Positions 1,589 to 55,805 of a DNA stretch of 64,000 nucleotides are shown one piece after another. The notes under the pieces were generated by a model, which ran no database searches, had not been told where the DNA came from, and saw only the letters and a program-made list of their open reading frames with translations. The stretch is from a bacterium (GTDB lineage Bacteria > Desulfobacterota > Binatia > DP-6). Numbering within the stretch: position 1 is the first letter of the stretch; every line of letters starts with the position of its first letter. Location: assembly GCA_026129405.1 (NCBI GenBank), contig JAHCID010000010.1, forward strand, positions 4,122 to 68,121. Direction: 5' to 3'. The position numbers were made by a program, and so were the translations under genes.

Positions 1589-1621
1589 ACCACCGGGGGC
1601 GTCGGTAAGCTCCGATTCCCG

Positions 1622-22950: not shown

Positions 22951-25560
22951 ATGCCATCTCCGACCGCACCGCGGCTGCATCTGATCGACGGCAGCGGGTA
23001 CGTGTATCGCGCGTTCCATGCGCTCCCGGCGCTGTCGACGACGCGCGGGCAGCCGACGAACGCCATCTTCGGATTCGCGAAGATGGTCGCGAAGCTGATC
23101 CGCGAAGAACGGCCCGACCACGTCGCCGTGGTGTTCGACGCCCCGGGGCGCGCCACCTTTCGCGACGCCATGTTCGACGGCTACAAGGCCTCGCGGGCGA
23201 GGATGCCGGACGAGCTGCGCTCCCAGATCCCGTACATCCGCCGGCTGGTCGAGGCGCTGCGGCTGCCGGTGATCGAGGAGCCCGGGGTCGAGGCGGACGA
23301 CGTCATCGGCACGCTCGTGACGCAGGCGAGCCGCGCCGGCGTCTCGACCGTGGTCGTCACCGGCGACAAGGACATGATGCAGGTCGTCGACGAGCGCACG
23401 AGCCTGCTCGACCCGATGCGCGATCGCCGCTTCGGGCCGGCCGAGGTGGTCGAGCGCTTCGGGGTTCCGCCGGCCCTGGTCCCCGACGTGCTCGGGCTCA
23501 TGGGCGACGCCATCGACGACATCCCCGGTGTCACCGGCGTGGGCGAGAAGACGGCGATGGCGCTCGTGCAGAAGCTCGGGCCGGTCGAACGTATCCTCGC
23601 CTCGCTCGACGAAGTTCCGAGCACCGGCATTCGCGGCGCGAAGAAGGTGGCCGAGACGCTTGCGCGCGAGGCCGAGACGGCGCAGCTCTCCAAGCGGCTC
23701 GCCACGATCCAGTGCGATCTGCCGCTCGAGCTCGAGCTCGAGGCGCTGCGCTGGAGCGGGCCCGATCGGGAGCATCTGCGGCCACTGCTGGTGGAGCTCG
23801 AGATCCACTCGCTCCTGCGCGAGCTCGGCGTCGCCGGCGAGACCGTCGCGATCGTGACGACCGAGGTCGACGCGGCGACCGCCTCCACGGCGGCGCGCAC
23901 GCTGGCGGCAGCGTCGGCGGTCGCGATCGTGCCGGTGCTCGAGGGCGCACGCGCCACCACGGCGGCGCTCGCGGTGCTCGCGCTCGCGGGGCCGAGCGAT
24001 CCGGTCGTCGTCGCGCGCGACCCGGACACGAGCGGCGCGCTCCTGGCGTTGGCGCCGGTGCTGAACGACCTCGCGGTCACCAAGGTCGGCGCCGACCTGA
24101 AGGCGACGCGCGTCGCCCTCGCGCGGCGCGGCGTACGCCTCGGGGGGCCGGCGTTCGACCTCGGCCTGGCGTCGTACTGTCTCAACCCCTCAGCCGCCGA
24201 TCACGGCATCGGCGCGTTGGCCGAGGAGCTGCTCGGCCATCCGCGTGCCGAGGACGAGGACGCCGTTGCGAACGCGGCGCGGGCGGCCCGCGCTGCCCAT
24301 GGTCTCGTGCCCATCCTCTCGGAGCGTCTCCGCGCGCACGAGATGGAGCGGCTCTTCCGTGACGTCGAGATGCCGCTCGCCGAGGTCCTCGCCGAGATGG
24401 AGCTCGCCGGCGTGGCCCTCGATGTGCCGGTGCTCACGCGGCTCGGGGGGGAGCTCGAGGCGTCGCTCGCCCGGCTGATGGCGGAGATCCACGAGCTCGC
24501 CGGCGGCCCGTTCAACATCGGCTCGCCGCCGCAGCTGCGCGAGGTGCTCTTCGAGCGGCTCAAGATCCCGACGCGCGGCATCCGCCGCGGGAAGACCGGC
24601 TTGTCCACCGATGTCGACGTGCTGACGCGGCTCGCGCGCGAGCACCCGCTGCCGGGCAAGATCCTCGAGTGGCGCCAGCTCTCGAAGCTCAAGTCGACGT
24701 ACGTCGATGCGCTGCCGGCGCTGGTCGATCCGCACAGCGGTCGTCTGCACACGTCGTTCAATCAGACCGTGGCGGCGACGGGACGGCTCTCGAGCTCCGA
24801 TCCCAATCTGCAGAACATTCCGGTGCGCAGCGAGGAGGGCCGGCGCATCCGCGCCGCGTTCGTCGCACCGCCCGGCCAGCGCCTGATCTCGGCCGACTAC
24901 TCGCAGATCGAGCTGCGCCTGCTCGCCCATCTCGCCGACGACCCCGGCTTGTGCGCCGCGTTCGCAGCCGAGGCGGACGTGCACGCGACGACGGCGGCCG
25001 AGGTCTTCAAGGAGCTGCCGCCGGCCGAGGGGCGGCGGTTGGCCAAGGTGATCAACTACGGGCTCGTCTATGGCATGGGCCCGTCGCGTGCGGCGCGCGA
25101 GCTCGGCGTCTCGCTGGCCGAGGCCGAGGCCTACATCGAGGGCTACTTCACGCGCTACCCGCGCGTGCGCCGCTTCATCGATGACACCATCGCCGGCGCG
25201 CGGCGTTGCGGCTTCGTTACGACCGTCCTCGGCCGGCGCCGCTACCTGCCCGAGATCGGCGCCCGCGATGCGGCCGTGCGGCAGTTCGCGGAGCGCGCGG
25301 CGACCAATACGCCGATCCAGGGGTCGGCGGCCGATCTGATCAAGCTCGCCATGCTCGAGGTGCGCCGCCGGCTGCGTGCAGAGGGATTCCGAGCGCAGAT
25401 GCTATTGCAGGTGCACGATGAGCTGGTGCTGGAGGCCCCGGATGCGGAGGCGGAACGGGCGGCGGGTCTCGTGCGGACCGTCATGGAGGAGGTCTGGCCG
25501 CTGCGGGTTCCCTTGCGGGCCGAGGTACGAATCGGGGCGAACTGGGCCGAGGTCCACTGA
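22951..25560 (+). CDS. polA: DNA polymerase I
   Basis: 5'-3' exonuclease N-terminus (LHLIDGSGYVYRAFHALP), family-A polymerase motifs A/B/C (ISADYSQIELR, RRLAKVINYGLVYG, QVHDELVLE). Confidence 0.95.
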   Translation: MPSPTAPRLHLIDGSGYVYRAFHALPALSTTRGQPTNAIFGFAKMVAKLIREERPDHVAVVFDAPGRATFRDAMFDGYKASRARMPDELRSQIPYIRRLVEALRLPVIEEPGVEADDVIGTLVTQASRAGVSTVVVTGDKDMMQVVDERTSLLDPMRDRRFGPAEVVERFGVPPALVPDVLGLMGDAIDDIPGVTGVGEKTAMALVQKLGPVERILASLDEVPSTGIRGAKKVAETLAREAETAQLSKRLATIQCDLPLELELEALRWSGPDREHLRPLLVELEIHSLLRELGVAGETVAIVTTEVDAATASTAARTLAAASAVAIVPVLEGARATTAALAVLALAGPSDPVVVARDPDTSGALLALAPVLNDLAVTKVGADLKATRVALARRGVRLGGPAFDLGLASYCLNPSAADHGIGALAEELLGHPRAEDEDAVANAARAARAAHGLVPILSERLRAHEMERLFRDVEMPLAEVLAEMELAGVALDVPVLTRLGGELEASLARLMAEIHELAGGPFNIGSPPQLREVLFERLKIPTRGIRRGKTGLSTDVDVLTRLAREHPLPGKILEWRQLSKLKSTYVDALPALVDPHSGRLHTSFNQTVAATGRLSSSDPNLQNIPVRSEEGRRIRAAFVAPPGQRLISADYSQIELRLLAHLADDPGLCAAFAAEADVHATTAAEVFKELPPAEGRRLAKVINYGLVYGMGPSRAARELGVSLAEAEAYIEGYFTRYPRVRRFIDDTIAGARRCGFVTTVLGRRRYLPEIGARDAAVRQFAERAATNTPIQGSAADLIKLAMLEVRRRLRAEGFRAQMLLQVHDELVLEAPDAEAERAAGLVRTVMEEVWPLRVPLRAEVRIGANWAEVH

Positions 25561-25616
25561 CACACGTGATCGGGTGAATAGGTCCATCGTCGGGGCGTCT
25601 GAAAGCCGAGCGGGCC

Positions 25617-26201
25617 GTGGCGCCTAGCGACTGGGAGCTCGTACGGCGGGCCCGGGAGGGTGATCGTGATGCCTTCCGGACCCTGGTCGAGCGCTACCAG
25701 CGCAAGGTGGCGGCTCTGGCGCTCGGAATGCTCAGGAACAGGGAAGACGCCCTCGACGTGGTCCAAGAAACCTTCACCAAGGCCTACCAGAGCCTGGACC
25801 GGTTCAAAGGCGATTCGTCGTTCTACACGTGGGTGTACCGCATCGCCGCCAACCTCTGTATCGATCATCAGCGGCGGGATGCGAAGCTCGTCCACGTCCC
25901 CATCGATGCTCGCGGCAACGATGGCGAGGCGACGGGCGAGGAAATTCCTGCCGCCGCGCTCGAAGGCAGCGAACCCGACGAGCCCTTCCAGCGGGCCCGC
26001 GATGCGGAGATCTCTGCGGGCCTCGCCCGAGCCATCTCCGAGTTGACCCCCGAGCATCGCGCCGTCATACTCCTGCGCGAAGTGGATGGGCTCTCCTACG
26101 AGGAGATCAGCGAGGTTCTCGGGTGCCCGAAGGGCACCGTGATGAGCCGACTCCACTACGCGCGACGCCAGCTCCAGGAGCGGTTGCGCAGCCTGCGCTG
26201 A
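25617..26201 (+). CDS. ECF (sigma-70 family, RpoE-like) RNA polymerase sigma factor
   Basis: Sigma-70 region 2 (DALDVVQETFTKAYQSLDRFKGDSSFYTWVYRIAAN) and region 4 (LSYEEISEVLGCPKGTVMSRLHYARRQL). Confidence 0.9.
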   Translation: MAPSDWELVRRAREGDRDAFRTLVERYQRKVAALALGMLRNREDALDVVQETFTKAYQSLDRFKGDSSFYTWVYRIAANLCIDHQRRDAKLVHVPIDARGNDGEATGEEIPAAALEGSEPDEPFQRARDAEISAGLARAISELTPEHRAVILLREVDGLSYEEISEVLGCPKGTVMSRLHYARRQLQERLRSLR

Positions 26202-26223
26202 CGAACCTCCAGATGGGCCGCCC

Positions 26224-26721
26224 ATGACCTGCGACGACGTCCAGCAGCACATCCACCGCTTTCTCGACACGGAGCTTCCTCCCCCGATGCTGCTGGCGGT
26301 CGCACGACACGCCGGCGGTTGTAGCGCCTGCGAAACGCGCATCCGCGAGCTGAGCGACCTCGGTGATGCGTTGCGCGCCGAAGCCGAGGCCGCGCTCGCG
26401 ACGCTCGACATGACCCAGGTCTGGGCCGGAGTCGCGAAGGGCCTCGACGCGCACGACGCGGAGGTCACCCGGCGACGCCGGCTGCGCGCGCTGCCGCTCT
26501 GGGGCTCGGGGCTCGCTGCCGCCGCCGTCCTGGTCGCGTTGCTCGACGGGCCGCGTCCCGACGTGCAGATGACGACGTCCCACGTCGTCCAGCAGCAGCC
26601 GGTGCGGCAGGTCGCCGCCATCGACCGGCTCGCCGTCGAGAATCGCCATCAGGTCTCCGTGCGGCGCGACCAGAAGGGTTTCACCCTGATCGCGCTCGGT
26701 GACGGAAACGAGGCGCGGTGA
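26224..26721 (+). CDS. zf-HC2-type anti-sigma factor (membrane-spanning)
   Basis: Directly follows the ECF sigma. N-terminal H-x3-C-x2-C zinc motif (HIHRFLD...HAGGCSAC), central TM helix (LWGSGLAAAAVLVALL). Confidence 0.75.
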   Translation: MTCDDVQQHIHRFLDTELPPPMLLAVARHAGGCSACETRIRELSDLGDALRAEAEAALATLDMTQVWAGVAKGLDAHDAEVTRRRRLRALPLWGSGLAAAAVLVALLDGPRPDVQMTTSHVVQQQPVRQVAAIDRLAVENRHQVSVRRDQKGFTLIALGDGNEAR

Positions 26722-27239
26722 CCCGCGCGCAGGTCGGGGTGGCCGTGCTGGGCCTCGTGAGCGGCCTCGGCGCGGTCTGCCACGCCTTGCCGCCGCCGGG
26801 ACCGATCCAGGTCGAGATCCAGGCCGTCCTCGCGAGCAACTCGGGCGTCTGCGATCCGCGCGTCGCGCAGCTGAAGGCGCGGCTGCGCCGGCTCGCCGGC
26901 TTCCGCAACTACCAGCTCCTCGTCACCATCACGCGCACGCTGCCGTGGCGCGAGACGCAGGTGATCCCGCTGCCGGGCGAGCGCACCATCGTCCTCCAGC
27001 CGAAGATGATCGACCGCGGGCGGATCGTGATGCAGGTCCGCCTCCTCGAGCAGAGCCGGCAGTTCCTGCAGACCACCTTGCGCCTTCCGAACCAACACAC
27101 CATGGTGTTCTCGATGGGGCACGACGGCGTGCTGGGCGGTCTCGAGCCGGCCGAGGCGGGCAGCGCCCCTGGTCCGGGAAGCTCGGACAGCGCCTATCTG
27201 GTGCTTCTCAAGGCCGAGCATCCGAGCGCGGAGCACTGA
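26718..27239 (+). CDS. hypothetical secreted protein, third gene of the sigma/anti-sigma operon
   Basis: 4-nt overlap with the anti-sigma stop. Signal-like N-terminus. No family recognised. Confidence 0.5.
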   Translation: MTRAQVGVAVLGLVSGLGAVCHALPPPGPIQVEIQAVLASNSGVCDPRVAQLKARLRRLAGFRNYQLLVTITRTLPWRETQVIPLPGERTIVLQPKMIDRGRIVMQVRLLEQSRQFLQTTLRLPNQHTMVFSMGHDGVLGGLEPAEAGSAPGPGSSDSAYLVLLKAEHPSAEH

Positions 27240-27626: not shown

Positions 27627-27804
27627 GGCGATCTAGTGTCCCGAGTCTGAAGTTCGTCACCAAATCTCGGGCGGTCTCACGCCGCCCGGCTGCGTTGCGT
27701 CTCCTCACCATGGCGACGGCCATGCCTCGTCGTCGCGCCTCGCCGGGCGGCGCGATCCCGCCCGATCTTTGGCAACGAACTTCGGACTCGGGACACTAGT
27801 CGCC
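27627..27804. repeat. 178-bp element bounded by 37/38-bp near-perfect terminal inverted repeats, with three internal hairpins
   Basis: IR-L ggcgatctagtgtcccgagtctgaagttcgtcaccaaa (27627-27664) vs reverse complement of IR-R (27768-27804) ggcga-ctagtgtcccgagtccgaagttcgttgccaaa: 34/38 identical. Internal cgggcgg-N7-ccgcccg hairpins at 27668-27688 and 27744-27764, and catggc-gacg-gccatg at 27709-27724. Confidence 0.75.
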
Positions 27805-28008
27805 GAGCGTCGACCAGTCGACGGTCCAGAAGTCGGGGACGGGGGGCCGGAGCTCGGTGTGACCGCCGAAGCAGGAGAAGCTCGGGCGGTGGGTGAGGCG
27901 TTCGCGGAGGAGGTGGAGGTGCTCCTCGACGCTCTGGCCGGGGGCGGGGGCGCCGACGTCGAGACGTTTCATGCCGCCGCATTTGCGGCAGGTGACGTCC
28001 ACGCGCAT
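27796..28008 (-). CDS. small Cys-containing hypothetical protein (70 aa; putative metal-binding)
   Basis: MRVDVTCRKCGGMKRLDVGAPAPGQSVEEHLHLLRERLTHRPSFSCFGGH... GC3 is about 93%. It starts 20 nt after the sat stop. Its stop codon lies inside IR-R of the inverted-repeat element. Confidence 0.35.
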   Translation of the reverse strand: MRVDVTCRKCGGMKRLDVGAPAPGQSVEEHLHLLRERLTHRPSFSCFGGHTELRPPVPDFWTVDWSTLGD

Positions 28009-29371: not shown

Positions 29372-30562
29372 TCAGAGGTGGGCCGAGTCGAACGACTCGC
29401 TGACGCTACGGACCCGGAGACGGCGGCGCAGGCGGGCGAGCCCGCGAGCGGCGAGGGCGCCCAGGCCCGAACGGGTGAACGACTGGACCGCCACCGAGAG
29501 CCGGGCGTCCTCGCCCGCGGCGAAGCGCGCCTCGAGCGGGGTCACGCCGAGCGTCAGGTCGCGCAGCCAGCTGGTCGGGATGCCGCGCTCGCGGACGCGC
29601 CGGAACAGGTGCTGGAGCACCGGCGTCAGCGCCTCCGGGTCGAGCCTGCGGGTGGCCGGCGTGCGGCGCACGACGATCACCGGCTGAACGTCCGCTTCGA
29701 CCAGGGTGTCGACGGCGGTCACGAGCGTCTGCGGGTCGTCGAGGCCCGCCACGAGCTCCGTCCAGACGGTGCCGCGCGGGAAGACGGTCGCGGCGTGGGC
29801 GAGGGCTTCGAGGTAGCGATCGCGGCCGATGTAGCGTGCCCGCCCGACGCAGTGTCGTCCCAGCTGCTCGGCGTCGAAGACCTCGAGGTTGTAGCTGATG
29901 GCGTCGACGCCCATGGCGTACGTGCGGTCGATCCAGCGCAGGTCGCGCGGCGGATGCGTCTGCACGACGACGAGCGTGTCGAAGTGCTTGCGCACCGCCT
30001 CGATGAGCGGGGTCAGATGGGCGATGCCGCCGTCGTCCGCATCGAAGACGCTCGAGTTGAACAGGACCAGCTCGGCGGCGCCCTCGTCGAACGCGGCGCG
30101 TACGACCTCGACGACGTCGGCGGGCGTGACGTCGCCGTGCGCAGTGCCGCGCGCGCCCTCGGTACAGAAGCGGCACGGCGCGCCGGCGGCGGAGAAGCCG
30201 CACGCACCGCCCGGGTGCACGACGAGATGCGTGCCGTGCACGGTCGCGAGACTTTGCATCGGGATGCCGCGGCCGGTCCGTTCGTTCGCGAAACGCGGCG
30301 TCCGCCCGGGGCGTACCTCGAGCCGAACGTCGGCCCGGCGCAGGTCGGAGAGGAAATAGCGGCCGGACTCGGCGGCGAGGCGATAGGGCGTTGCGCTGTC
30401 GGCACCGTCGAGCGGCGCGGCGACCTGCATGCCGTCGGGTAGCACGAGGTCGATGGTGTCGGGAGGTCGTCCCGCTGCCAGCACGCCGGCGCTGGAGTCG
30501 AGCTGGAGCCCGCCCGCGGCGACGCCGAGCTTCCAGCGCAGAGGGTCGGTCGCCGCGCTCAC
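29372..30562 (-). CDS. uncharacterised 396-aa protein with a Cx8Cx2C cluster and TIM-barrel-like periodicity (radical-SAM-like or COG1900/DUF39-like; unresolved)
   Basis: The last 396 codons of the 710-aa track ORF are protein-like. Cys cluster HPGGACGFSAAGAPCRFCTEG, followed by alternating beta/alpha segments (LVLFNSS, AISYNLEVFD, VWTELVAGLDD). The GTG start overlaps the upstream gene stop (GTGA). Confidence 0.6.
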   Translation of the reverse strand: MSAATDPLRWKLGVAAGGLQLDSSAGVLAAGRPPDTIDLVLPDGMQVAAPLDGADSATPYRLAAESGRYFLSDLRRADVRLEVRPGRTPRFANERTGRGIPMQSLATVHGTHLVVHPGGACGFSAAGAPCRFCTEGARGTAHGDVTPADVVEVVRAAFDEGAAELVLFNSSVFDADDGGIAHLTPLIEAVRKHFDTLVVVQTHPPRDLRWIDRTYAMGVDAISYNLEVFDAEQLGRHCVGRARYIGRDRYLEALAHAATVFPRGTVWTELVAGLDDPQTLVTAVDTLVEADVQPVIVVRRTPATRRLDPEALTPVLQHLFRRVRERGIPTSWLRDLTLGVTPLEARFAAGEDARLSVAVQSFTRSGLGALAARGLARLRRRLRVRSVSESFDSAHL

Positions 30563-31128: not shown

Positions 31129-31413
31129 CTATTCGATCACGTTCTTCTCGATCGGCTCGACGGTCACGCCCTGCTCGCGCAGCCAGGCGATACCGCGCTC
31201 GATGGCGTCCTTGGCGCCGTCGAGCTCGATCGCGATGATGCCGATGTCCTCGTTGACGCTCGCCTGGCGGATGTTGAAGACCAGATCGAACTGGCGGCTC
31301 AGCTGGTAGATGAGCGGCTCCTTCACGAGACGGCTCGGGTAGGTGAGGTACAGCTTGGTTTTGTGCTGCGGACGGCTCGTGCCGCCGCGTGCGAGACGCG
31401 GGGATCGGCTCAT
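31129..31413 (-). CDS. NIL-domain protein (MetN C-terminal-like small ligand-binding domain)
   Basis: KLYLTYPSRLVKEPLIYQLSRQFDLVFNIRQASVNEDIGIIAIELDGAKDAIERGIAWLREQGVTVE fits the NIL-domain pattern. ATG overlaps the cysM-like stop (ATGA). Confidence 0.6.
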   Translation of the reverse strand: MSRSPRLARGGTSRPQHKTKLYLTYPSRLVKEPLIYQLSRQFDLVFNIRQASVNEDIGIIAIELDGAKDAIERGIAWLREQGVTVEPIEKNVIE

Positions 31414-32387
31414 CGCTTCTGCCACCCGAGCCAGAGGTTCGTGGAGAGATAGCGATCGCCGAAATCCGGGAACAGCACGACCACGGTGCCCTCCTCGAGG
31501 TCACGCGCCACCTGCAGCGCGGCGCAGTGGGCGGCGCCGCAGGACTGCCCCACGAGCAGACCTTCCTCGCGGCCCAGGCGGTAGACCATGTTGTAGGCGT
31601 CGTCGGTGGAGATGCCGAGCTTCCGGTCGAGCTCCTGCTCGTGGAAGATGCCCGGCACGATCGACGAGGCCATGTGCTTCAGGCCCTCGATGCCGTGGAA
31701 GGCGTCGTCGGGCTCGGCGGCGATCACCTCGATCGCGGGGTTCTGCTGCTTCAGATAGCGTCCGGTGCCCATGATCGTCCCGCCGGTGCCGATGCTGGCG
31801 ACGAAGTGGGTCACGGCGCCCGCGGTCTGTCGCCATATCTCCGGCCCGGTGCTCTCGACGTGCGCGCGGGGATTGGCCTCGTTGTTGTACTGATCCGGCT
31901 TGAAGTAGCGTTCGGGCGCCTCGGCGAGGCGCGTGCGGCAGAGACGGATGGCGCCGTCGGAGCCCTCGAGCGGGTCGGAGAAGACGATCGTCGCCCCGAA
32001 CGCGGTGATGACGTCCTTGCGCTCGCGGCTGACGTTTTCCGGCATCACGAGCTCGACGGGATAGCCGAGCGCCGCGCCGATCATCGCCAGCGCGATGCCG
32101 GTGTTGCCCGAGGTCGAGTCGAGGATGGTCTTGCCGGGGACCAGGCGGCCGGTCTCGATGCCGTCCTGGACCATGCGCAGCGCGGCGCGGTCCTTCACCG
32201 AGCCGCCCGGGTTGAAGCCCTCCAGCTTGGCGAAGATGCGCACCCCCGGCGGCACGCCGTCGCGCACGCGCCGCAGCTCGCACAGCGGCGTGTTGCCGAC
32301 GAGCGTCAGCACCGAGGGTGCGACGAGCGCTCCCTCGCGCGGCCCGAGCGGGCCGGCGAGGGCGGCATGGGCGACCGCGGGGTTCAT
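31410..32387 (-). CDS. cysM: PLP-dependent cysteine synthase (CysM/CysK family)
   Basis: PLP-lysine motif NPGGSVKDRAA, TSGNTGIALA, the GTGGT glycine loop, and 325 aa length. Confidence 0.88.
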   Translation of the reverse strand: MNPAVAHAALAGPLGPREGALVAPSVLTLVGNTPLCELRRVRDGVPPGVRIFAKLEGFNPGGSVKDRAALRMVQDGIETGRLVPGKTILDSTSGNTGIALAMIGAALGYPVELVMPENVSRERKDVITAFGATIVFSDPLEGSDGAIRLCRTRLAEAPERYFKPDQYNNEANPRAHVESTGPEIWRQTAGAVTHFVASIGTGGTIMGTGRYLKQQNPAIEVIAAEPDDAFHGIEGLKHMASSIVPGIFHEQELDRKLGISTDDAYNMVYRLGREEGLLVGQSCGAAHCAALQVARDLEEGTVVVLFPDFGDRYLSTNLWLGWQKR

Positions 32388-32400
32388 CGTGCGCGGACGC

Positions 32401-32676
32401 TCACCGTCCGCCGGCGATCGCCGGCACGATCGAGATCTCGTCGCCGGACTTCACCGGCGTCTCGAGGTTCTGAAGGAAGCGGATGTCCTCACCGTTGACG
32501 AAGATGTTGACGAAGCGGCGCACGGCCCCCTGCTCGTCGCAGATGCGATCGCGGATGCCCGGGTGACGGCTGTCGAGATCACGGATGAGCGCGGCCACGT
32601 CGGCTCCCTGGGCTTCCACGGCTTCGGCCCCGCCGGTGAACTTGCGCAGCGGCGTCGGCACTCGAACCTGGGTCAT
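32401..32676 (-). CDS. MoaD/ThiS-family sulfur-carrier protein, C-terminus ...AIAGGR
   Basis: 91-aa beta-grasp-like product ending in Gly-Gly plus one extra Arg (IVPAIAGGR-stop). Sits between the cysteine synthase and the ThrC-like gene. Confidence 0.7.
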   Translation of the reverse strand: MTQVRVPTPLRKFTGGAEAVEAQGADVAALIRDLDSRHPGIRDRICDEQGAVRRFVNIFVNGEDIRFLQNLETPVKSGDEISIVPAIAGGR

Positions 32677-34706: not shown

Positions 34707-34940
34707 GCTGGCTCGTCAGACGTGTGACGGTCTCACCAGCATGCGAACATTTATCTTTCGCGGGGCCCGCGGGGGGCGCTCGCCGCGTCGGAATTAGCAC
34801 CGGTCGTTCGCCGGTTGCTGTGGCTTCGCTGGGCCGGTCCCTCCGCCACTCTGGATAAGATGTCGTGCGTCTGTCTCTCGGTCGCGAGGTAGCCCGATTC
34901 ACGCCGGCGTGTCAATGCGAAGTCGGGCCGAGGCGCGTGC

Positions 34941-40689: not shown

Positions 40690-42603
40690 CTACGCGTAGC
40701 TCCGCTGCGCCAGGTGGACGTTCTCGAAGGTGAGGGGCTCCTGGTGCAGGACCGGATCGGTGCCGGCGCCGCGGAATTCCCAGGCGGCGACGTAGCAGAA
40801 GTGCTCGTCGTCGCGCTTGGCCTCGCCGTCGGGCGTCTGGCTCTCCTCGCGGAAATGTCCGCCGCACGATTCGCTGCGATGGAGCGCGTCGAAGGTCATG
40901 ACCTCGGCGAACTCGAGGAAGTCGGCGACGCGCAACGCGAGCTCCAGCTGCTTGTTCAGGTTGTTGCGGTCGCCGGGCACGCGCACGTCCTGCCAGTACT
41001 CCTGCTGGAGCTGGCGCACGCGGGCGAGGGCGGTGCGCAGCCCCGCGTCGGTGCGCGACATGCCGACATAGTCCCACATGAGCTTGCCGAGCTCGCGGTG
41101 GAAGTCCTGTACGGTGCGGCTGCCGTTCACGGCGAGCACCGTCTCGATGCGCTGCTGCACGCTCGCCGCCGCCTCCGCGAACGCCGCATGGTCGGTCGCG
41201 ACCGCGGGCAGCTTGTTGCTCGCGATGTAGTTGGCGAGCGTGTACGGGATCACGAAGTAGCCGTCGGCGAGGCCCTGCATGAGAGCGCTCGCGCCGAGAC
41301 GGTTGGCGCCGTGGTCGGAGAAATTCGCCTCGCCCAGCACGAAGAGGCCGGGGACGTTGCTCATGAGCTCGTAGTCCACCCACAGGCCGCCCATCGTATA
41401 GTGGACGGCGGGGTAGATGCGCATCGGCACCTCGTACGGATTCTCGCCCGTGATGTGCCGATACATGTCGAACAGGTTGCCGTAGCGCTCGCGGATCGTC
41501 TTCTCGCCGAGCCGTTTGATGGCGTCGGCGAAATCCAGGTAGACGGCGAGCCCCGTCGCGCCGACGCCGCGGCCCTCGTCGCAGACCGCCTTCGCGGCGC
41601 GCGAGGCGACGTCGCGGGGAACGAGATTGCCGAAGCTCGGGTAGCGGCGCTCGAGGTAGTAGTCCCGCTCCGCCTCCGGGATCTGCTGCGGCGGGCGCTG
41701 GTCCCTGGCCTGCTTCGGGACCCACACGCGGCCGTCGTTGCGCAGGCTCTCGCTCATGAGGGTGAGCTTGGCCTGGTAGTCGCCGGTCACCGGGATGCAG
41801 GTCGGGTGGATCTGCGTGAAGCACGGGTTCGCGAAGTACGCGCCGCGGCGGGTGCAGCGCCAGTTGGCCGTGACGTTCGAGTTGCCGGCGTTCGTCGACA
41901 GGAAGAAGACGTTGCCGTAGCCGCCGGTGCAGAGGAGCACGGCGTCGGCCGACCACCGCTCCAGCTCGCCGGTGACGAGGTCGCGCGTGACGATGCCGCG
42001 GGCGCGGCCGTCGACGAGGACGAGATCGAGCATCTCGCGCCGCGCGAAGAGCTTCACCTGGCCGCGGTCGACCTGGCGCATCATCGCCTGGTAGGCGCCG
42101 AGGAGGAGCTGCTGGCCCGTCTGGCCGCGCGCGTAGAAGGTGCGCGACACCTGGGCGCCGCCGAAAGACCGGTTGTCGAGCAGCCCGCCGTATTCGCGCG
42201 CGAACGGGACGCCCTGGGCGACGCACTGGTCGATGATGTGGACGCTGATCTCGGCCAGGCGGTGGACGTTCGCCTCGCGGGCCCGGAAGTCGCCGCCCTT
42301 CACCGTGTCGTAGAAGAGGCGGTGCACCGAGTCGCCGTCGTTCTTGTAGTTCTTCGCGGCGTTGATGCCACCCTGGGCCGCGATCGAGTGCGACCGGCGC
42401 GGGCTGTCGAGGATGGTGAAGGCGAGGACGTTGTATCCGAGCTCGCCCAGCGACGCGGCCGCCGATGCGCCCGCGAGGCCGGTGCCGACGACGATGACGG
42501 TGTGCTTCCGGCGGTTGGCCGGGTTCACCAGCTTCATGTCGAACTTGTGCCGCTCCCACTTGCCCTCGAGCGGACCGGAGGGGACCCTGCCGTCCAGCGT
42601 CAC
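40690..42603 (-). CDS. sdhA: succinate dehydrogenase/fumarate reductase flavoprotein subunit
   Basis: FAD Rossmann [14 protein letters not shown], covalent-FAD His context ([14 protein letters not shown]), 637 aa. Confidence 0.95.
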
Positions 42604-43268
42604 AGCCGACCTCCGGTGAAGAACACGACGACGGGAACGAGCGTGAAGCCGCCGGCGATCGCGAGGGCGACGATCTGCCCCGTGCGCCGGATCGCGGGAC
42701 GATGCGCCACGCCGAGCGAGTCGAAGGCGCTGCCGAACCCGTGCCAGAGGTGGAAGCCGACGACGCCCATCGCCAGCACGTACCAGGCGACGAGCAACGG
42801 GTTCTGGAAATCCTCGATCACCAGGCGGTGGAGGTCACGGATGCCCGGCTCGCCCGGGGTCTCGTAGTGGGGGCCGAACTTGAACATCCGGATGTGCAGC
42901 GGCACGAAGACGAGCAGGACGAGCCCGGTGAGGATCATCGTCGTCGACGCGAGACTCTTGTGGCTCGTGTGTCCCGCGCGCTTCTTCATCTGGTAGGCGA
43001 CGGGGCGCGCCGCACGATTGCGCAGCCAGACGCGAATGCCGCTCACCAGATGGGCGACGAAGAGCGCCGCCAGGCCGGCCTCTGCCAGATAGATGAGCGG
43101 GTTGGAGGTGAGCGAGTGGCTGTAGGCGTTGTAGGCGCCGGGTCCGACGAAGACGAGCAGGTTCGCGCTCATGTGGGTCGCGAGGAACCCGATCAGGGCG
43201 AGCCCCGTGAGGCCCATCAGGACCTTCTGACCGATGGTACCGGTCAGGAATTTCAGCACCCGAGACAC
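42600..43268 (-). CDS. sdhC: succinate dehydrogenase cytochrome b subunit
   Basis: Five TM helices with conserved His residues. Overlaps the sdhA start by 4 nt. Operon order sdhC-A-B. Confidence 0.8.
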
Positions 43269-43738: not shown

Positions 43739-44407
43739 TCAGTGACGACCGATGAGGTAGAGGAGGGGGAAGAGGAAGATCCAGACGATGTCGACGAAGT
43801 GCCAGTACAGGCCGCAGACCTCGACCGGGTTGTGGTAGGCCGGCCCGAAGCGGCCCTTCCACATCGCCCACATGAGCCAGGCCATGATGCCGACGCCGAT
43901 GATCATGTGCAGCGCGTGCAGACCGGTCATCGCGAAGTAGAGCGAGTAGAATATCTGCACGGCGTGCGCTTCGCCGGCGTCCGGCCAGTGGAAGTTCGGA
44001 CCCGGGATCAGGTGGTCCACCCACTTGTGGTAGTACTCGTAGACCTTCACGCCGAGGAACACGCTGCCGAGCACGACGGTCGCCATCACCCAGAAGATCT
44101 GGCGGAAGCGGTTGTGGCTCATCTGCGCCGCGTGGACGGCGAGCGCCATCGTGAGGCTCGAGCCGATCAGGACGGCGGTGTTGAAGGTGCCGAGCGTGAC
44201 GTCGAGGTGGTGCGACGCGTGCTGGAACGCGGTGGGGTGGAGGAAGCGGTAGACGATGTAGAGGCCGAACAGCCCGCCGAAGAACATCACCTCGTTGACG
44301 AGGAATGCCCACATCCCGACGGTGACGGACTCCTTCTGCTGCTCGGCGTCGTCGAACTGATGCGCGACGTTGACGTCGTGGTGCGCGTGTGCAGCGAGCT
44401 CAGCCAA
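43739..44407 (-). CDS. ctaE: cytochrome c oxidase subunit III
   Basis: Seven-helix subunit III pattern ([32 protein letters not shown]). Confidence 0.9.
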
Positions 44408-46067
44408 CGGCGGCCTCCTTCATGGACCCGTTCGCCGGAGCGGGCGGGAATTGCACCGACGTCTCGTAGTCGTAGGCCTCGGCGGTGACGATCGGCGTGC
44501 GGACGAAGTTCTCGGTGGGCGGCGGCGAGGCCGTCTCCCACTCGAGGCCCGCGGCGCCCCACGGATTCGCGATGGCGCGCTCTCCGAAGCGCAGCGACCA
44601 GGGCAGGTAGAGCATCGGCAGCAGGTACCCGATCCCGAGGATGGTCGCGCCGGCCGTCGACATCACGTTCAGCACCTGGAACTCGTCCGGATACACGTGG
44701 TAGCGCCGCGGCATGCCGAGGTAGCCCACGATGAACTGCGGGAAGAACGTGAGGTTGAACCCGAGGAACACGATCACGCCCGCGACCTTCGCCAGCGCCT
44801 CGGGGTACATCCGGCCGGTGATCTTCGGCCACCAGAAGTGGATGCCGCCGAGGTAGGCCATGATCGCACCGCCCACCATCACGTAGTGGAAGTGCGCGAC
44901 GACGAAGTACGTGTCGTGCACGTGCACGTCGAGGCCGAGCGTCGCGAGGAAGAGGCCGGTGAGGCCGCCGATCGTGAACAGGCCGATGAAGCCGAGCGCG
45001 TACAGCATCGGCGAGTCCCAAGAGACGGAACCCTTGTAGAGCGTGGCCGTCCAGTTGAAGACCTTCACCGCCGAGGGAATCGCGACGGCCATCGACAGGA
45101 AGGAGAACACCATGCCGACGTAGACCGACTGGCCGCTCGTGAACATGTGGTGGCCCCACACGACGAAGCCGAGCACGGCGATCATGAGGCTCGAGACCGC
45201 GATGAACGCGTAGCCGAACACGCGCTTGCGCGAGAAGGCCGTGACCAGCTCGCTGATCACGCCCATGCCCGGGAGGATCATGATGTAGACGGCGGGGTGC
45301 GAGTAGAACCAGAACAGGTGCTGGAACAGGATCGGGTCGCCGCCGAGCTTCGGATCGAAGAAGCCGAGGTGCAGCCCGCGCTCGACGGCCACGAGCAGGA
45401 TGGTGATCGCCAGCACCGGAGTGCCGAGGATCATGATCAGGCTCGTCGCATAGTGCGCCCACACGAAGAGGGGCAGGCGCATCCAGGTGAGGCCGGGCGC
45501 CCGCATCGTGTGGATCGTCACGATGAAGTTGAGGCCCGTGAGGATCGACGAGAAGCCGGTGATGAAGACGCCGAGCGCGGCCGGGATGACGTTGGTCGTC
45601 GAGGCCGAGGTGCTGAACGGCGTGTAGAAGGTCCAACCGGTGTCGAGGCCGCCCGTGATCATGGCGTACAGCGCGAAGCCGGCGCCGATCATGAAGATGT
45701 ACCAGCTGAGGAGGTTGATGCGCGGGAAGGCGAGGTCGCGCGCTCCGATCATCAGCGGGATCAGGAAGTTGCCGAGCACCGCCGGGATCGACGGGACCAG
45801 GAAGAAGAAGATCATCACCACGCCGTGCATGGTGAAGAGCTTGTTGTAGGTGTCGCTCTGGACGAGGTCGCCGCGCGGCGTGAGCAGCTCGAGCCGGATC
45901 AGACCGGCGAAGATGGCGCCGACCAGGAAGAAGATCGAGATCGAGACGAGGTAGAGGATCGCGATCCGCTTGTGGTCGACGGTGAGCAGCCACGAGCGGA
46001 CGGTGTAGTCCGCGTTGAGATAGGTCGTGGGCTCGTCCTTCGGCCGCGTGTCGATGGCGGTGTTCAT
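44400..46067 (-). CDS. ctaD: cytochrome c oxidase subunit I (heme-copper oxidase catalytic subunit)
   Basis: Canonical subunit I helices and ligands ([36 protein letters not shown]). Starts at [10 protein letters not shown]; overlaps the ctaC stop. Confidence 0.95.
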
Positions 46068-47044
46068 CAGTGGGCCTCCGCGCCTGAGTGCGCCTTCGCA
46101 CTCGACGGCGCCTCCGCGCCCGCGGGCGGCAGCGACTTCACGTATGCGATGAGCTGCATCACGCTCTCCTCGCTGAGCAGACCCTGGAAGGTCGGCATGA
46201 TCGGCTGATAGCCCTCGACGAGCTTCGCCTGCGGGTTGAGGATCGACTCGCGCAGGTAGTTGTCGTCGACGGTGACCGTGCGTCCGTCGGTCAGTTTCAC
46301 CGTCTTGCCGAAGATGCCGCCGAGCAGCGGGCCGCGGGCGCCCGGCCCCCCGAGGTGGCACGAGGCGCAGCCCTGCTGCTGGAAGAGCTGCGCGCCCGCC
46401 TCCGCGACGGAGACGCCCTTGTCGCCGGCCAGCCACGCCTGGAAGGCGGGCGGGTCCATCGCGATGATCTTGCCGATCATCCCGGAGTGCAGCGTGCCGC
46501 AGTACTCGGCGCAGAACAGGTGATACTCGCCGGGCTGCGTCGCCTCGAACCAGGTGAGGGTGTAGCGACCCGGCACGGCGTCCATCTTGGTGCGGAACGC
46601 CGGCACGTAGAAGCTGTGGATCACGTCCTCGGACGCCAGCGTCACCTGCACGGGCTTGCCGACCGGGATGTGGAGCTCGTTGATCTCCCGCCGGCCCTCC
46701 ATGTGCTGGACCTTCCACATCCACTGCTTGCCGACGACGTTCACGTACAGCGCGTCGTCGGGCGGCCGGCGGATGTTGGCGTACAGCACGGCGCCCCAGC
46801 CGAAGATGCCGATCGAGATGATGAAGGGGATGATCGACCAGGCGAACTCGAGCAGGTTCGAGCCGTGGATGCCGTGCGGCCGCTCGTCGTGGCTGCGCCG
46901 CTTGAAGCGGATCATGAACGCGACGATCGTCGCCGCGATCGCCACGGTGAAGAAGACCGTCAGGGCGACGAGGAAGAAGAAGAGGTAGTCGACCTGCGGC
47001 GCCAGGGTCGACGCCTGCACGGGGAACAACCGGAAGTCATTCAT
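46067..47044 (-). CDS. ctaC: cytochrome c oxidase subunit II with C-terminal cytochrome c domain (caa3-type)
   Basis: CuA site ([17 protein letters not shown] ... [12 protein letters not shown]) plus a C-terminal heme c motif CASCH. Confidence 0.9.
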
Positions 47045-50622: not shown

Positions 50623-55048
<4,426 letters not shown>

Positions 55049-55065
55049 GTCGTCTCCTCGCGGGG

Positions 55066-55719
55066 CTAGCGGTGGCAGGTGTCGCAGTCGGTGCGCGGGT
55101 GGACGTCGTAGGCCTTCACCAGCTCGCGACCGAGGGTCAGCTGATCACCGTCCGGACGCCACGCCATGTTGAAGACCTGGTCGCGCGGCCGGATGTACTG
55201 TTCCGGGTTGCGGTGGCAGTCGAGACACCACTCCATCTGCAACGAGCTCTGCTGGTAGACCTGATTCATCTCGTCGATGCGCCCGTGACACGTCGCGCAC
55301 CCGATGCCCTTGTGCACGTGGACGCTGTGGTTGAAGTAGGCGAAGTCCGGCAGGTCGTGGATGCGGATCCACTTGAGCGGCTTGTCGTCGCGATAGCTCG
55401 CGCGCACCGGCTCGAGGATGGGCGCCTCGGTCCAGATCTGGCTGTGGCAGTTGATGCAGGTCTTCGTCGGCGGGATGCCGGCGAAGGCCGCCTGCTCGAC
55501 CTGGGTGTGGCAGTAGCGGCAGTCGATCCCGAGCTCGCCGGCGTGGTGCTTGTGGCTGAACTGGATCGGCTGCTCGATCGCCTCGAACTGCCCCGTCACG
55601 TAGCTCGATCGGGCGATCACCGTCATCAAGAGGACGAGGGCTCCGCCTGCGAGGGCGCCGCCCCCGACGATGATGACCCGTGCCAGTACGTTCGAACGCC
55701 GCTTGAATATCTGGGCCAT
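55066..55719 (-). CDS. actA: alternative complex III pentaheme cytochrome c subunit ActA
   Basis: N-terminal TM anchor and five CxxCH motifs (CRYCH, CINCH, CATCH, CLDCH, CDTCH). Confidence 0.85.
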   Translation of the reverse strand: MAQIFKRRSNVLARVIIVGGGALAGGALVLLMTVIARSSYVTGQFEAIEQPIQFSHKHHAGELGIDCRYCHTQVEQAAFAGIPPTKTCINCHSQIWTEAPILEPVRASYRDDKPLKWIRIHDLPDFAYFNHSVHVHKGIGCATCHGRIDEMNQVYQQSSLQMEWCLDCHRNPEQYIRPRDQVFNMAWRPDGDQLTLGRELVKAYDVHPRTDCDTCHR

Positions 55720-55805
55720 GCGTTAGCGCGCGCAGTCTACAAGGTGACGATCCGCATTCAACGAATCGGGCCCTGAGATCACCTTGCCGGACGAATAAGC
55801 GTGGC

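Follow-up and report, generated by a model that had tools for sequence, protein, structure and literature searches.

A non-canonical radical-SAM enzyme encoded in a SAM-riboswitch-controlled sulfur-carrier operon of Binatia

Radical-SAM enzymes are known to be encoded with ubiquitin-like sulfur-carrier systems, ThiH with the ThiS system (ThiS/ThiF/ThiG) and MoaA with the MoaD system (MoaD/MoeB). Both enzymes carry the canonical Cx3Cx2C motif and make the sulfur acceptor, dehydroglycine and cPMP, respectively. Lipoyl synthase (LipA/LIAS), found in a lipoylation context, combines a Cx3Cx2C motif with an auxiliary Cx4Cx5C motif and a C-terminal RSSY. In the CysO-CysM-Mec-MoeZ system of M. tuberculosis and the MetO-MetM-Mec-MoeZ system of Streptomyces, a MoaD-type carrier is activated as a thiocarboxylate by a rhodanese-fused E1 and a JAMM hydrolase is present, without a radical-SAM enzyme; for the Streptomyces system, the account of Hasebe et al. 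2024 given in GapMind 2026 describes a ThrC-like homocysteine synthase that uses the carrier thiocarboxylate. In the type '4e' ThiS/MoaD-JAB-E1-SirA neighbourhoods, assimilated sulfur is moved onto the carrier (Iyer, Burroughs & Aravind 2006, PMC1779556). PAPS reductase, sulfite reductase, SirA/TusA and O-acetylhomoserine sulfhydrylase are present there, and the term radical-SAM has 0 occurrences in that article.

The operon described here lies in a 64-kb stretch of DNA (the window) and follows the logic of the CysO and MetO systems, with a MoaD-type GG carrier, an E1, CysM and a putative ThrC-like homocysteine synthase all encoded at one locus (Table 1). Nine genes run in the order E1, ThrC-like (MetM-type), MoaD/CysO-type carrier, CysM, NIL, pseudo-E1, radical-SAM (rSAM), ATP sulfurylase and a 70-aa protein behind a SAM-I riboswitch, which matched the Rfam model over its full length (72.5 bits, E 4.9e-15; gathering score 44.4) and also precedes the E1 gene in three further loci (L013, L008 and L022). 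Judging from its genes, the riboswitch-controlled operon activates sulfate, and the carrier thiocarboxylate would serve CysM for cysteine and the ThrC-like enzyme for homocysteine. For the ThrC-like protein, its setting (SAM riboswitch, MoaD) and the summary in the GapMind 2026 preprint suggest a homocysteine synthase of the MetM type, dependent on thiocarboxylate. In contrast with the CysO and MetO systems, the E1 is apparently split and carries the ThiF domain only, so that the lack of a rhodanese noticed in the earlier note holds; there is no JAMM gene in the window although the carrier ends in GG-R, and both a radical-SAM gene and that of a sulfate importer belong to the constant set. Among orthologous carriers, 22 of 49 end in GG plus R and 13 of 49 in a free GG. 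The JAMM motif was found neither in the 64-kb window nor within 10 kb of the rSAM gene in Binatia-type loci, and the JAMM/Mec hydrolase and rhodanese/TusA relay missing from the operon may be encoded elsewhere in the genome. A ubiquitin-like carrier and a rhodanese-less E1 with sulfate transport and ATP sulfurylase/APS kinase genes are shared with the type '4e' neighbourhoods, from which the operon differs by the reductases absent from its neighbourhood and by the constant radical-SAM gene. Unlike the loci of ThiH and MoaA, it has no ThiG or MoaE partner; unlike that of LipA, its context is sulfate assimilation.

Table 1. Features of the operon and of the rSAM protein, in window coordinates
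Feature	Position	Strand	Basis or remark
SAM-I riboswitch (S-box leader), directly upstream of first operon gene	34748..34861	-	Rfam RF00162
Catalytic E1 (ThiF/MoeB-type adenylyltransferase), 242 aa	33978..34706	-	Pfam ThiF 229 bits, residues 9-225
ThrC-like PLP enzyme, 417 aa	32728..33981	-	PALP 234.6 bits; passes thrC models
MoaD/ThiS-family sulfur carrier, 91 aa, ending ...AIAGG-R	32401..32676	-	Pfam ThiS 70.9 bits; NCBIfam SAMP1/moaD_arch
CysM-type cysteine synthase, 325 aa	31410..32387	-	PALP 238 bits; TIGR01136 cysKM 351 bits vs cut-off 344
Stand-alone NIL-domain protein, 98 aa, without cysteine	31129..31425	-	Pfam NIL 64 bits
Pseudo-E1, 189 aa	30559..31128	-	Two-piece match to ThiF/MoeB profiles (residues 2-42, 61-186)
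Variant rSAM enzyme, 396 aa	29372..30562	-	ORF, profiles, alignment, fold model
N-terminal domain of rSAM, ~105 residues, two helices and five strands	30248..30562	-	AlphaFold secondary structure
Cys121-x8-Cys130-x2-Cys133, predicted [4Fe-4S] site, loop after first core strand	30164..30202	-	Invariant in 75/75 homologues
C238 (fourth invariant Cys), then R241, R243, R247, R249, 'RHCxGRxRYIGRxRY' after core strand 4	29816..29851	-	Homologue alignment
Conserved basic C-terminal tail RGLARLRRRLRVRSVSESFDSAHL	29375..29446	-	Alignment and model
ATP sulfurylase (Sat), 442 aa	28028..29356	-	Pfam PUA_2 and ATP-sulfurylase
Conserved 70-aa protein, CxxC motif, without Pfam family	27796..28008	-	Follows Sat in 10 related loci

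The two E1-like proteins share out the motifs of one enzyme. The catalytic E1, without a rhodanese or TusA domain and without the N-terminal R[YW]xRQ segment, matches positions 30-249 only of the MoeB profile, and in a motif census it has GxGGxG and lacks RxxRQ. In the pseudo-E1, the IERWSRQ...GQ segment at the N-terminus and the CxxC pairs at the C-terminus are retained; its P-loop is degenerate (GDGPAA), and about 65 residues with the nucleotide-binding segment DxD...SNLxRQ...K are deleted. By motif census and alignment, the two sets of motifs are complementary in all loci. We rejected the idea that the pseudo-E1 is an adaptor specific to the rSAM protein, because its motifs complement the truncated E1 and because one distant operon has an ordinary full-length E1 beside the rSAM gene.

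The rSAM open reading frame, pointed out in the earlier note, is a real and conserved gene of 396 codons and a TGA stop, whose translation contains HPGGACGFSAAGAPCRFCTEG. It starts with a GTG at 30562 that overlaps the stop of the upstream gene (GTGA), and its homologues start at the same position. The earlier placement of the gene needs correction in two respects: rather than closing the cluster at its distal end, it is the seventh gene, followed on the same strand by those for ATP sulfurylase and the 70-aa protein (gaps of 15 and 19 nt), and rather than adjoining the NIL gene, it is separated from it by the degenerate ThiF-like pseudo-E1 gene.

Two identities had been proposed from the letters alone, a non-canonical radical-SAM-like enzyme and a COG1900/DUF39-like protein, and only the former stood. 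Radical_SAM was the sole Pfam family matched (PF04055, 32.6 against a threshold of 29.5), the 'variant_rSAM' domain model NF045502 was also passed (137.1 against 125), and no DUF39 match appeared up to E = 0.1. The AlphaFold2 model (pLDDT 88.1, pTM 0.86) places six beta/alpha units at residues 112-326, in agreement with the TIM-barrel-like alternation read from the sequence and with the partial (beta/alpha)6 TIM-barrel core of the radical-SAM superfamily. Fold comparison of the model returned radical-SAM enzymes, lipoyl synthases being the closest structures. Among named enzyme families, TIGR00510 lipA alone gave a sequence match, and a weak one (E 1.4e-3, 18 bits against a cut-off of 310), and a PDB sequence search gave no match with the protein at E = 10 nor with a 75-sequence profile at E = 1. 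Judged by profiles and the predicted fold, the gene product is a true radical-SAM enzyme, if a non-canonical one, with a partial TIM barrel like those of LipA, BioB and ThiH.

The cysteine cluster is not a chance pattern. C121 (codon 30200-30202), C130 (30173-30175) and C133 (30164-30166) are invariant in 75 of 75 homologues (51-86% identity), so that the loss in close orthologues that would have spoken against the cluster was not seen. The three residues are predicted to bind a [4Fe-4S] cluster in the loop that follows core strand 1, where the superfamily has its three-Cys site. As the earlier note had it, the spacing is Cx8Cx2C and not the canonical Cx3Cx2C; variant spacings are known in accepted radical-SAM members, e.g., HmdB, QueE and ThiC. 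The Pfam Radical_SAM alignment begins at C130, with only the CxxC part matched. A motif scan over 269 family proteins found the motif 151 times, in 147 cases with the x8 spacing; its last-residue filter missed many distant members, and in many of these the HMM alignment gives spacings from x8 to about x12. D177-G178-G179, S223/N225/E227 and G273/E275 are invariant and stand at the strand ends expected for SAM-binding elements. The corresponding motifs DGG, SYNLE and LVxGLE resemble those of LipA on visual comparison and in a weak alignment by hhalign with E. coli LipA (approximate query sequence), whose 1% probability lets it illustrate the motif correspondence only. By position, they are candidates for the GGE-like, ribose and GxIxGxxE elements. 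Further invariant residues with the look of an active site are H193, D195, Q201 and H203.

Elsewhere the protein departs from LipA. The auxiliary Cx4Cx5C motif is absent, and the analysis of conserved cysteines in the 75 homologues gave no second cluster site; the N-terminal domain has K11, G18, T96 and M102 as its only invariant residues, with no conserved Cys or His. In place of the C-terminal RSSY, the tail has S-x-S-F/Y, and the resemblance of its 'VRSVSESF' to the 'VRSSY' of LipA is an eye-level lead only. Residues 385-396 are disordered in the AlphaFold model, and 66 family representatives, some of them without the cluster cysteines, share the tail motif RRxLRV(R/K)xVS(D/E)S(F/Y)xS(S/A)(G/H)L. 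The NF045502 and TIGR04043 families, for which we know of no reaction, share with the rSAM protein the lengthened Cx8-10Cx2C loop, and a conserved Cys likewise follows strand 4, at a position that reads 'CPGK' in distant members. For TIGR04043 itself (MSMEG_0568 family radical SAM, Nit1C clusters) the score is 109.2, below the cut-off of 303.7. Proteins of the MSMEG_0568-like branch lack the basic tail at the C-terminus and differ in their accessory domain (P0178, P0190), and published work puts their genes together with nitrilase-type genes.

Neighbourhoods were compared in about 60 MAG loci (Binatia, "delta" and Myxococcota), with neighbour genes found by targeted phmmer queries and a GC3-based gene caller because the genomes have about 70% GC. 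A '427-aa unknown gene' in the flanks proved to be a spurious alternative-frame ORF of the high-GC genome. The rSAM family is widespread in uncultured soil and marine lineages. A 57%-identical rSAM homologue has the same synteny as the window locus. Carrier, E1 and JAB genes lie upstream of the rSAM gene, E1 and MoaD being present in 42 of 43 loci. The most conserved adjacency is that with a Na/sulfate symporter gene (SLC13) directly downstream (48/55 loci), and the carrier-rSAM-symporter arrangement holds whichever PLP consumers are present. Minimal Myxococcota clusters consist of AdoHcyase, E1::TusA, MoaD, an E1 N-terminal piece, JAB, rSAM, SLC13 and ferredoxin. In some loci JAB adjoins the rSAM gene, with one putative JAB::rSAM fusion (P0146), and ferredoxin, APS kinase and CysDN genes are among the neighbours in some. 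The homologue in Nitrospina (L059) keeps the C-terminal tail and lacks the cluster cysteines and the SYNLE motif. The NIL gene co-occurs with the ThrC-like gene and not with the rSAM gene, and we accordingly rejected NIL as the partner of the rSAM enzyme. A COG1900/DUF39-like protein pairing with NIL for sulfide-dependent homocysteine synthesis would agree with a NIL gene two genes upstream, but seven loci keep the rSAM gene and have no NIL; with neither profile nor fold on its side, this identity is refuted at the level of sequence and fold and has practically no chance of being right.

What, then, does the rSAM protein do? A literature search on the enzyme, on a Cx8Cx2C radical-SAM motif and on sulfur metabolism in Binatota found no description of either enzyme or motif. 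We tentatively favour, at less than even chances, an Fe-S/SAM-dependent step on the sulfur-supply side, with the C-terminus of the carrier as its target. A split E1, formed by the catalytic subunit and the pseudo-E1, would adenylate the Gly-Gly C-terminus of the carrier, and the rSAM protein would bind the flexible adenylated tail. Drawing on low-potential electrons (ferredoxin) and on an open-site [4Fe-4S] cluster together with Cys238 and the Arg-rich pocket, it could then deliver or reductively release sulfur to give carrier-COSH, SAM being either cleaved or only bound, and CysM and the ThrC-like enzyme would consume the thiocarboxylate. Several points weigh against such loading. In the M. 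tuberculosis and Wolinella systems sulfide can react with carrier acyl-adenylates without an enzyme, and a dedicated loader may therefore not be needed. The conserved SAM-binding-type motifs argue for true radical chemistry, for which thiocarboxylate formation has no obvious need, and the closest relatives of the protein in structure are enzymes that place sulfur in C-H bonds or produce sulfur acceptors, not carrier loaders. Since loci with an E1-TusA fusion or an adjacent TusA gene still have the rSAM gene, the protein is not a simple replacement of the persulfide relay; the co-occurrence of TusA and JAB with rSAM in other lineages likewise weakens the idea that it substitutes for rhodanese/TusA or JAMM.

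A rival reading is a LipA-like sulfurtransferase in which the carrier thiocarboxylate, and not a sacrificial auxiliary cluster, is the donor. A 5'-deoxyadenosyl radical would take H from a substrate, possibly anionic or amino-bearing, the substrate radical would capture sulfur from MoaD-COSH, and a JAB peptidase would free the acyl-thioester or amide adduct. Besides the nearness of the lipoyl synthases in structure and the weak sequence match to lipA, the auxiliary-cluster cysteines are absent, and any sulfur must therefore come from outside; the minimal Myxococcota clusters hold no other thiocarboxylate consumer, JAB adjacency and fusion fit the release of a product from the carrier, and ThiH and MoaA offer the analogy. 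We nevertheless consider this consumption of thiocarboxylate rather unlikely, because the context suggests no product, cysteine and homocysteine being already covered by CysM and the ThrC-like enzyme, because the PLP consumers of the minimal clusters may be encoded elsewhere, and because the tight pairing with a sulfate importer instead of a substrate-supplying gene is left without explanation. That pairing, together with one rSAM::SLC13 fusion (P0195), is what a regulatory subunit would account for, one that senses SAM as end product and the Fe-S/redox state and whose basic tail gates the SLC13 importer and/or the E1, much as GlnK gates AmtB and a NIL domain gates MetN. The operon already has a SAM riboswitch and a NIL domain, so that regulation would be layered, and the tail is the most conserved element, surviving in paralogues such as that of Nitrospina. 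However, the Cys-less paralogues are not beside SLC13, the single fusion comes from one metagenomic contig and could be a frameshift artefact, and the invariant C238, R241, R243, R247, R249, H193, D195, Q201 and H203 suggest a substrate pocket; a sensor role thus appears improbable.

The four invariant Arg beside C238 could also belong to an enzyme that replaces the reductive step, binding a sulfur oxyanion (APS/PAPS, sulfite or thiosulfate) in the Arg-rich pocket and feeding the carrier by reductive cleavage at the cluster. This would explain why the operons have genes for transport and activation yet lack APS/PAPS reductase and sulfite reductase; crude motif scans saw neither in the window or within 10 kb of the rSAM gene in related loci, and the signatures ECG[LIVM]H and GCPNxC were absent from the 64-kb window and from within 10 kb of the rSAM gene in about 70 loci. 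The ferredoxin, APS kinase and CysDN neighbours of some loci would agree with it. Yet such scans are crude and reductases are commonly encoded elsewhere, M. tuberculosis being an example; for six-electron sulfite reduction we know only of siroheme or multihaem sites, and operons with Sat only and those with Sat and APS kinase would require different substrates. Even though PAPS reductase and sulfite reductase belong to the classical MoaD-linked operons for sulfur assimilation (Iyer et al. 2006, PMC1779556), we regard this replacement as very improbable.

Even if the enzyme is only an accessory or regulator, the finding corrects a gene labelled 'hypothetical protein' in GenBank and sets out an operon type that can be recognised and for which current pathway-reconstruction tools have no explanation. 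It brings to light an rSAM family under SAM-riboswitch control, locked between carrier machinery and a sulfate importer, and bears on two questions, namely by which route the carrier receives sulfur if its E1 comes without a rhodanese and whether radical-SAM sulfur insertases can have donors other than their own clusters. The nine-gene operon is small enough to reconstitute, with the rSAM protein as a concrete, clonable candidate. It is possible, though doubtful, that this is the first radical-SAM (LipA-like) protein to work directly with a ubiquitin-like sulfur carrier, either with the thiocarboxylate as donor or by reductive loading without free sulfide. In the former case the carrier would replace the sacrificial Fe-S cluster in radical C-S bond formation; in the latter an Fe-S-dependent step would couple the import and activation of sulfate to the carrier, with no free sulfide in between. 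Either would amount to a new bacterial sulfur-assimilation module in Binatia, Myxococcota and their relatives.

The open reading frame of the radical-SAM (rSAM) enzyme consists of 396 codons and a TGA, and it starts with a GTG that overlaps the TGA stop codon of the gene before it (GTGA). Since its homologues begin at the same position, the coordinates and length assigned to it in the earlier note are correct. A search of 5.8 billion proteins returned 371 homologues. The identical protein in GenBank, from a MAG, is named 'hypothetical protein KIT14_23875', and the relatives in Binatia, 'Deltaproteobacteria' and Eisenbacteria MAGs are annotated 'radical SAM protein' or 'hypothetical protein'. 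The peptide HPGGACGFSAAGAPCRFCTEG is present in the enzyme. The Cx8Cx2C cluster noticed earlier was borne out, as C121, C130 and C133 are kept in 75 of 75 homologues with 51-86% identity, and a fourth cysteine, C238, is likewise invariant. When 1.84 billion cluster representatives were searched with a profile, 1555 matched at E ≤ 0.001, 162 of them at E ≤ 1e-30. Scanning for the motif detected it in 151 of 269 family proteins, with the x8 spacing in 147; the last-residue filter of the scan overlooked many distant members, and in many of these the HMM alignment reveals a spacing of x8 to about x12. Because it is invariant among the homologues and recurs across the family proteins, the cysteine motif is a conserved feature and not a chance occurrence.

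The sole Pfam family for the enzyme is Radical_SAM, at 32.6 bits (cut-off 29.5). As the alignment begins at C130, the canonical model fits no more than the CxxC part. The NCBIfam model NF045502 'variant_rSAM' was also passed (137.1 against 125). With these two matches, the proposal of a non-canonical radical-SAM-like enzyme stands. The alternative of a COG1900/DUF39 identity is rejected, as nothing backs it at any level. The cut-off of TIGR04043 (MSMEG_0568 family) was not reached (109 against 303.7), the lipA model matched faintly (E 1.4e-3), and sequence searches with a single-sequence or profile query gave no PDB match. The enzyme is a member of the already modelled, uncharacterised family NF045502 and is neither LipA, nor of the MSMEG_0568 family, nor DUF39.

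The AlphaFold2 model is confident (pLDDT 88.1, pTM 0.86; 75-row alignment). It comprises an N-terminal domain (about 105 residues; two helices and five strands), six beta/alpha units from residue 112 to 326, a helical C-terminal part, and a last dodecapeptide that is disordered. Three motifs, D177-G178-G179, S223-x-N225-x-E227 and G273-x-E275, are invariant and by eye match DGGA, NHNLE and GLGE of LipA, respectively. A weak hhalign alignment with an approximate E. coli LipA sequence gave the same placement and serves as illustration only. Whereas LipA has an N-terminal Cx4Cx5C auxiliary-cluster motif, the rSAM family has no counterpart, and no conserved Cys or His was found in the N-terminal domain in the homologue alignment. 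A family-specific element is 'R-H-C238-x-G-R-x-R-Y-I-G-R-x-R-Y', where 'CPGK' is found in distant members. These data show a LipA-like radical-SAM core with a conserved predicted [4Fe-4S]-type site and no auxiliary cluster.

The rSAM gene belongs to a run of nine genes on the (-) strand that overlap or are separated by gaps of at most about 50 nt, and no terminator-like site was found on this strand between them (34706 to 27796). A full-length SAM-I riboswitch (Rfam RF00162, 72.5 bits, E 4.9e-15) immediately precedes the E1 gene, and the sulfur-carrier operon with its nine genes is therefore probably regulated by SAM as a whole. The riboswitch also precedes E1 in the related loci L013, L008 and L022; it is missing in variants without the ThrC-like gene (L015, L021) and in minimal Myxococcota clusters (L042, L044). 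Carrier-based cysteine synthesis is known from the mycobacterial CysO/CysM route. A recently described route to homocysteine, MetM/MetO (Hasebe et al. 2024, summarised in the GapMind 2026 preprint), employs a ThrC-like enzyme, carrier thiocarboxylate and O-phosphohomoserine. Together the two routes account for four operon genes, and a single E1-activated carrier would serve the synthesis of cysteine as well as that of homocysteine, controlled by SAM; judged from its context, the ThrC-like protein is likely MetM. The 70-aa product of gene 9 matched no Pfam family; it has a CxxC near its N-terminus ('...FSCFGGH...'), and its gene directly follows that of ATP sulfurylase in 10 related loci. The flank of the operon opposite the polymerase side holds BamD-like and FabF-like genes, and the Binatia contig L069 shares the flanking genes, which makes a Binatia-related genome the probable source of the window.

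Positions and strands of features in the window
Feature	Position	Strand
Sulfatase	1589-3514	+
One operon flank: DNA polymerase I, ECF sigma factor, putative zf-HC2 anti-sigma factor, small unknown genes	22951-27236	+
Operon gene 9: 70-aa CxxC protein	27796-28008	-
Operon gene 8: ATP sulfurylase		-
Operon gene 7: rSAM enzyme, 396 aa	29372-30562	-
Conserved basic C-terminal tail of rSAM enzyme	29375-29446	-
C133 of rSAM enzyme	30164-30166	-
C130 of rSAM enzyme	30173-30175	-
C121 of rSAM enzyme	30200-30202	-
Operon gene 6: degenerate ThiF-like protein, 189 aa	30559-31128	-
Operon gene 5: NIL protein, 98 aa, without Cys	31129-31425	-
Operon gene 4: CysM, 325 aa		-
Operon gene 3: MoaD/ThiS-type carrier, 91 aa, ending AIAGG-R	32401-32676	-
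Operon gene 2: ThrC-like PLP enzyme, 417 aa		-
Operon gene 1: E1, ThiF domain only, 242 aa	33978-34706	-
SAM-I riboswitch	34748-34861	-
Succinate dehydrogenase/fumarate reductase flavoprotein	40693-42834	-
Cytochrome oxidase (haem-copper) subunits III and I	43742-47036	-
Large Fe-S protein beside multihaem cytochrome c (alternative-complex-III-like)	52013-55722	-

The conservation of this neighbourhood was surveyed in one genome per GTDB species, which gave 68 loci, and neighbour genes were called by targeted phmmer searches of six-frame ORFs. For 43 loci, 6 kb or more was available upstream of the rSAM gene; E1 and MoaD were each found there in 42, CysM in 40, the ThrC-like gene in 36, a second, short ThiF-like gene in 35 and NIL in 33. 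On the downstream side, 2 kb or more was available for 55 loci, of which 48 have a Na/sulfate symporter (SLC13 type) as the next gene and seven have ATP sulfurylase (Sat), in one case on the opposite strand; Sat lies within 9 kb in 36. The survey shows an obligatory genomic association of rSAM with a Ubl sulfur carrier and its E1 upstream (in other lineages JAB too), and with sulfate importer or sulfate-activation genes downstream, whichever thiocarboxylate consumers are present. The earlier note had likened the NIL gene and its neighbour to COG1900 + NIL pairs. NIL co-varies with the ThrC-like gene (both in 33 loci, neither in seven, ThrC-like only in three) and therefore goes with homocysteine synthesis rather than with the rSAM enzyme, which suggests a role of the stand-alone NIL protein in that synthesis or in methionine sensing.

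Several variants of the arrangement occur. L015, L021 and similar loci read E1-MoaD-CysM-short ThiF-rSAM-SLC13-Sat, without ThrC-like, NIL or the riboswitch. The Myxococcota clusters contain DsbA-like, AdoHcyase, E1::TusA, MoaD, a 129-aa E1 N-terminal piece, JAB, rSAM, SLC13 and 7Fe ferredoxin genes, with no PLP enzyme nearby. Another variant has a HAD hydrolase just before the rSAM gene and APS kinase after the symporter; in this subtype HAD lies between the short ThiF-like gene and the rSAM gene at L041, L047, L048, L050, L053, L057 and L058. More distant family members show PALP-JAB-(full-length E1)-rSAM-SLC13 and MetM-NIL-CysM-JAB-ThiS-rSAM-SLC13. An rSAM::SLC13 fusion (protein P0195, L071 498-3143) stands between TusA and CysD, CysN, and a Prok-JAB::rSAM fusion (P0146, L070 719-2446) is beside ThiS. 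Each fusion is known from one metagenomic contig; the two may be genuine 'Rosetta stone' fusions, or they may be artefacts of a 1-nt frameshift, and the corresponding separate genes normally overlap by 4 nt.

Two segments of the short ThiF-like protein (residues 2-42 and 61-186) match the MoeB/ThiF profiles. In an alignment with a normal E1, this protein retains 'IERWSRQILLPEVGGTGQ', carries GDGPAA where the P-loop should be and has lost the DxDxVxxSNLxRQ...K segment (about 65 residues deleted). The 242-aa E1 is its mirror image, with the P-loop intact and the N-terminal segment absent. Across the loci, GxGGxG is present and R[YW]xRQ absent in every full E1; in nearly all short ThiF-like proteins, R[YW]xRQ is kept and the P-loop is missing. 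Since in MoeB/ThiF homodimers and eukaryotic E1s the ATP site is completed by an N-terminal Arg that the partner (inactive) adenylation domain contributes, the two proteins are best read as a putative split, heteromeric E1, resembling the inactive/active domain arrangement of the eukaryotic enzymes. The short protein would then probably be an E1 subunit and not an adaptor dedicated to the rSAM enzyme. In L074, a distant operon, the E1 is of the ordinary, unsplit kind.

Among 49 carrier orthologues from L001-L066, 22 end in GG plus R, 14 have other extensions of 1-5 residues and 13 have a free GG. The carrier in the window ends in GG-R and therefore needs a C-terminal peptidase; CysM-type chemistry requires a JAMM hydrolase. 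The JAMM/Mec motif was absent from the 64-kb window and from within 10 kb of the rSAM gene in Binatia-type loci, and JAB lies directly upstream of the rSAM gene in Myxococcota and other lineages. A crude signature scan of the same scope found neither the APS/PAPS reductase signature (ECG[LIVM]H) nor that of sulfite reductase (GCPNxC). Genes for these reductases are often located elsewhere in the genome.

The most conserved element of the rSAM family is a family-specific basic C-terminal tail, RRxLRV(R/K)xVS(D/E)S(F/Y)xS(S/A)(G/H)L, found in 66 representatives. It survives in paralogues that lack both SYNLE and the cysteines of the Fe-S site (L059 9968-11101, P0187, P0200, P0213 and others). 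The Nitrospina homologues (~30% identity) have lost the cluster cysteines and SYNLE and kept the tail; they adjoin HAD, a Mur-type ligase, a peroxiredoxin and a radical-SAM protein that has the canonical Cx3Cx2C motif and a C-terminus rich in Cys, and belong to a different system. At L059-L062 the HAD gene is two genes upstream of the Cys-less paralogues, before the Mur-type ligase.

We infer that the rSAM enzyme works at the C-terminal tail of the carrier. The reading towards which we lean, tentatively, places it on the sulfur-supply side: the carrier would be adenylated, the open-site cluster, C238 and a reductant would deliver or reductively release sulfur, and carrier-COSH would be the product. 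Like the three cluster cysteines, C238 is invariant, and four invariant Arg lie next to it. The main rival is a LipA-like thiolase, in which carrier-COSH would replace the sacrificial cluster and JAB would free the product; the rSAM fold and the minimal clusters without a thiocarboxylate consumer argue for such a role, but no product suggests itself, and we consider it unlikely. The rSAM-SLC13 gene pair and the survival of the tail in Cys-less paralogues would also fit a SAM/redox-sensing regulatory partner of the sulfate importer, a role that we hold to be improbable. The boldest and least supported reading, that the enzyme replaces APS or sulfite reduction, is very improbable.

Given the haem-copper oxidase, the succinate dehydrogenase-type flavoprotein and the multihaem/Fe-S complex encoded in the window, the host is probably aerobic; for an operon that relies on an enzyme class sensitive to oxygen, this is noteworthy. 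The operon represents a variant both of the CysO/MetO thiocarboxylate pathways and of the '4e' Ubl-linked sulfur-assimilation neighbourhoods; the latter contain PAPS reductases, sulfite reductases and SirA/TusA (Iyer et al. 2006, PMC1779556). Whereas the operon in the window has an rSAM gene, the term 'radical SAM' occurs nowhere in that paper, and a search of the literature on the enzyme, the cysteine motif and Binatota sulfur metabolism found no description of the enzyme or its association. In fold, the rSAM enzyme is no anomaly. Placed centrally in a sulfur-assimilation operon, it is an unknown that is well defined, widespread and accessible to testing.
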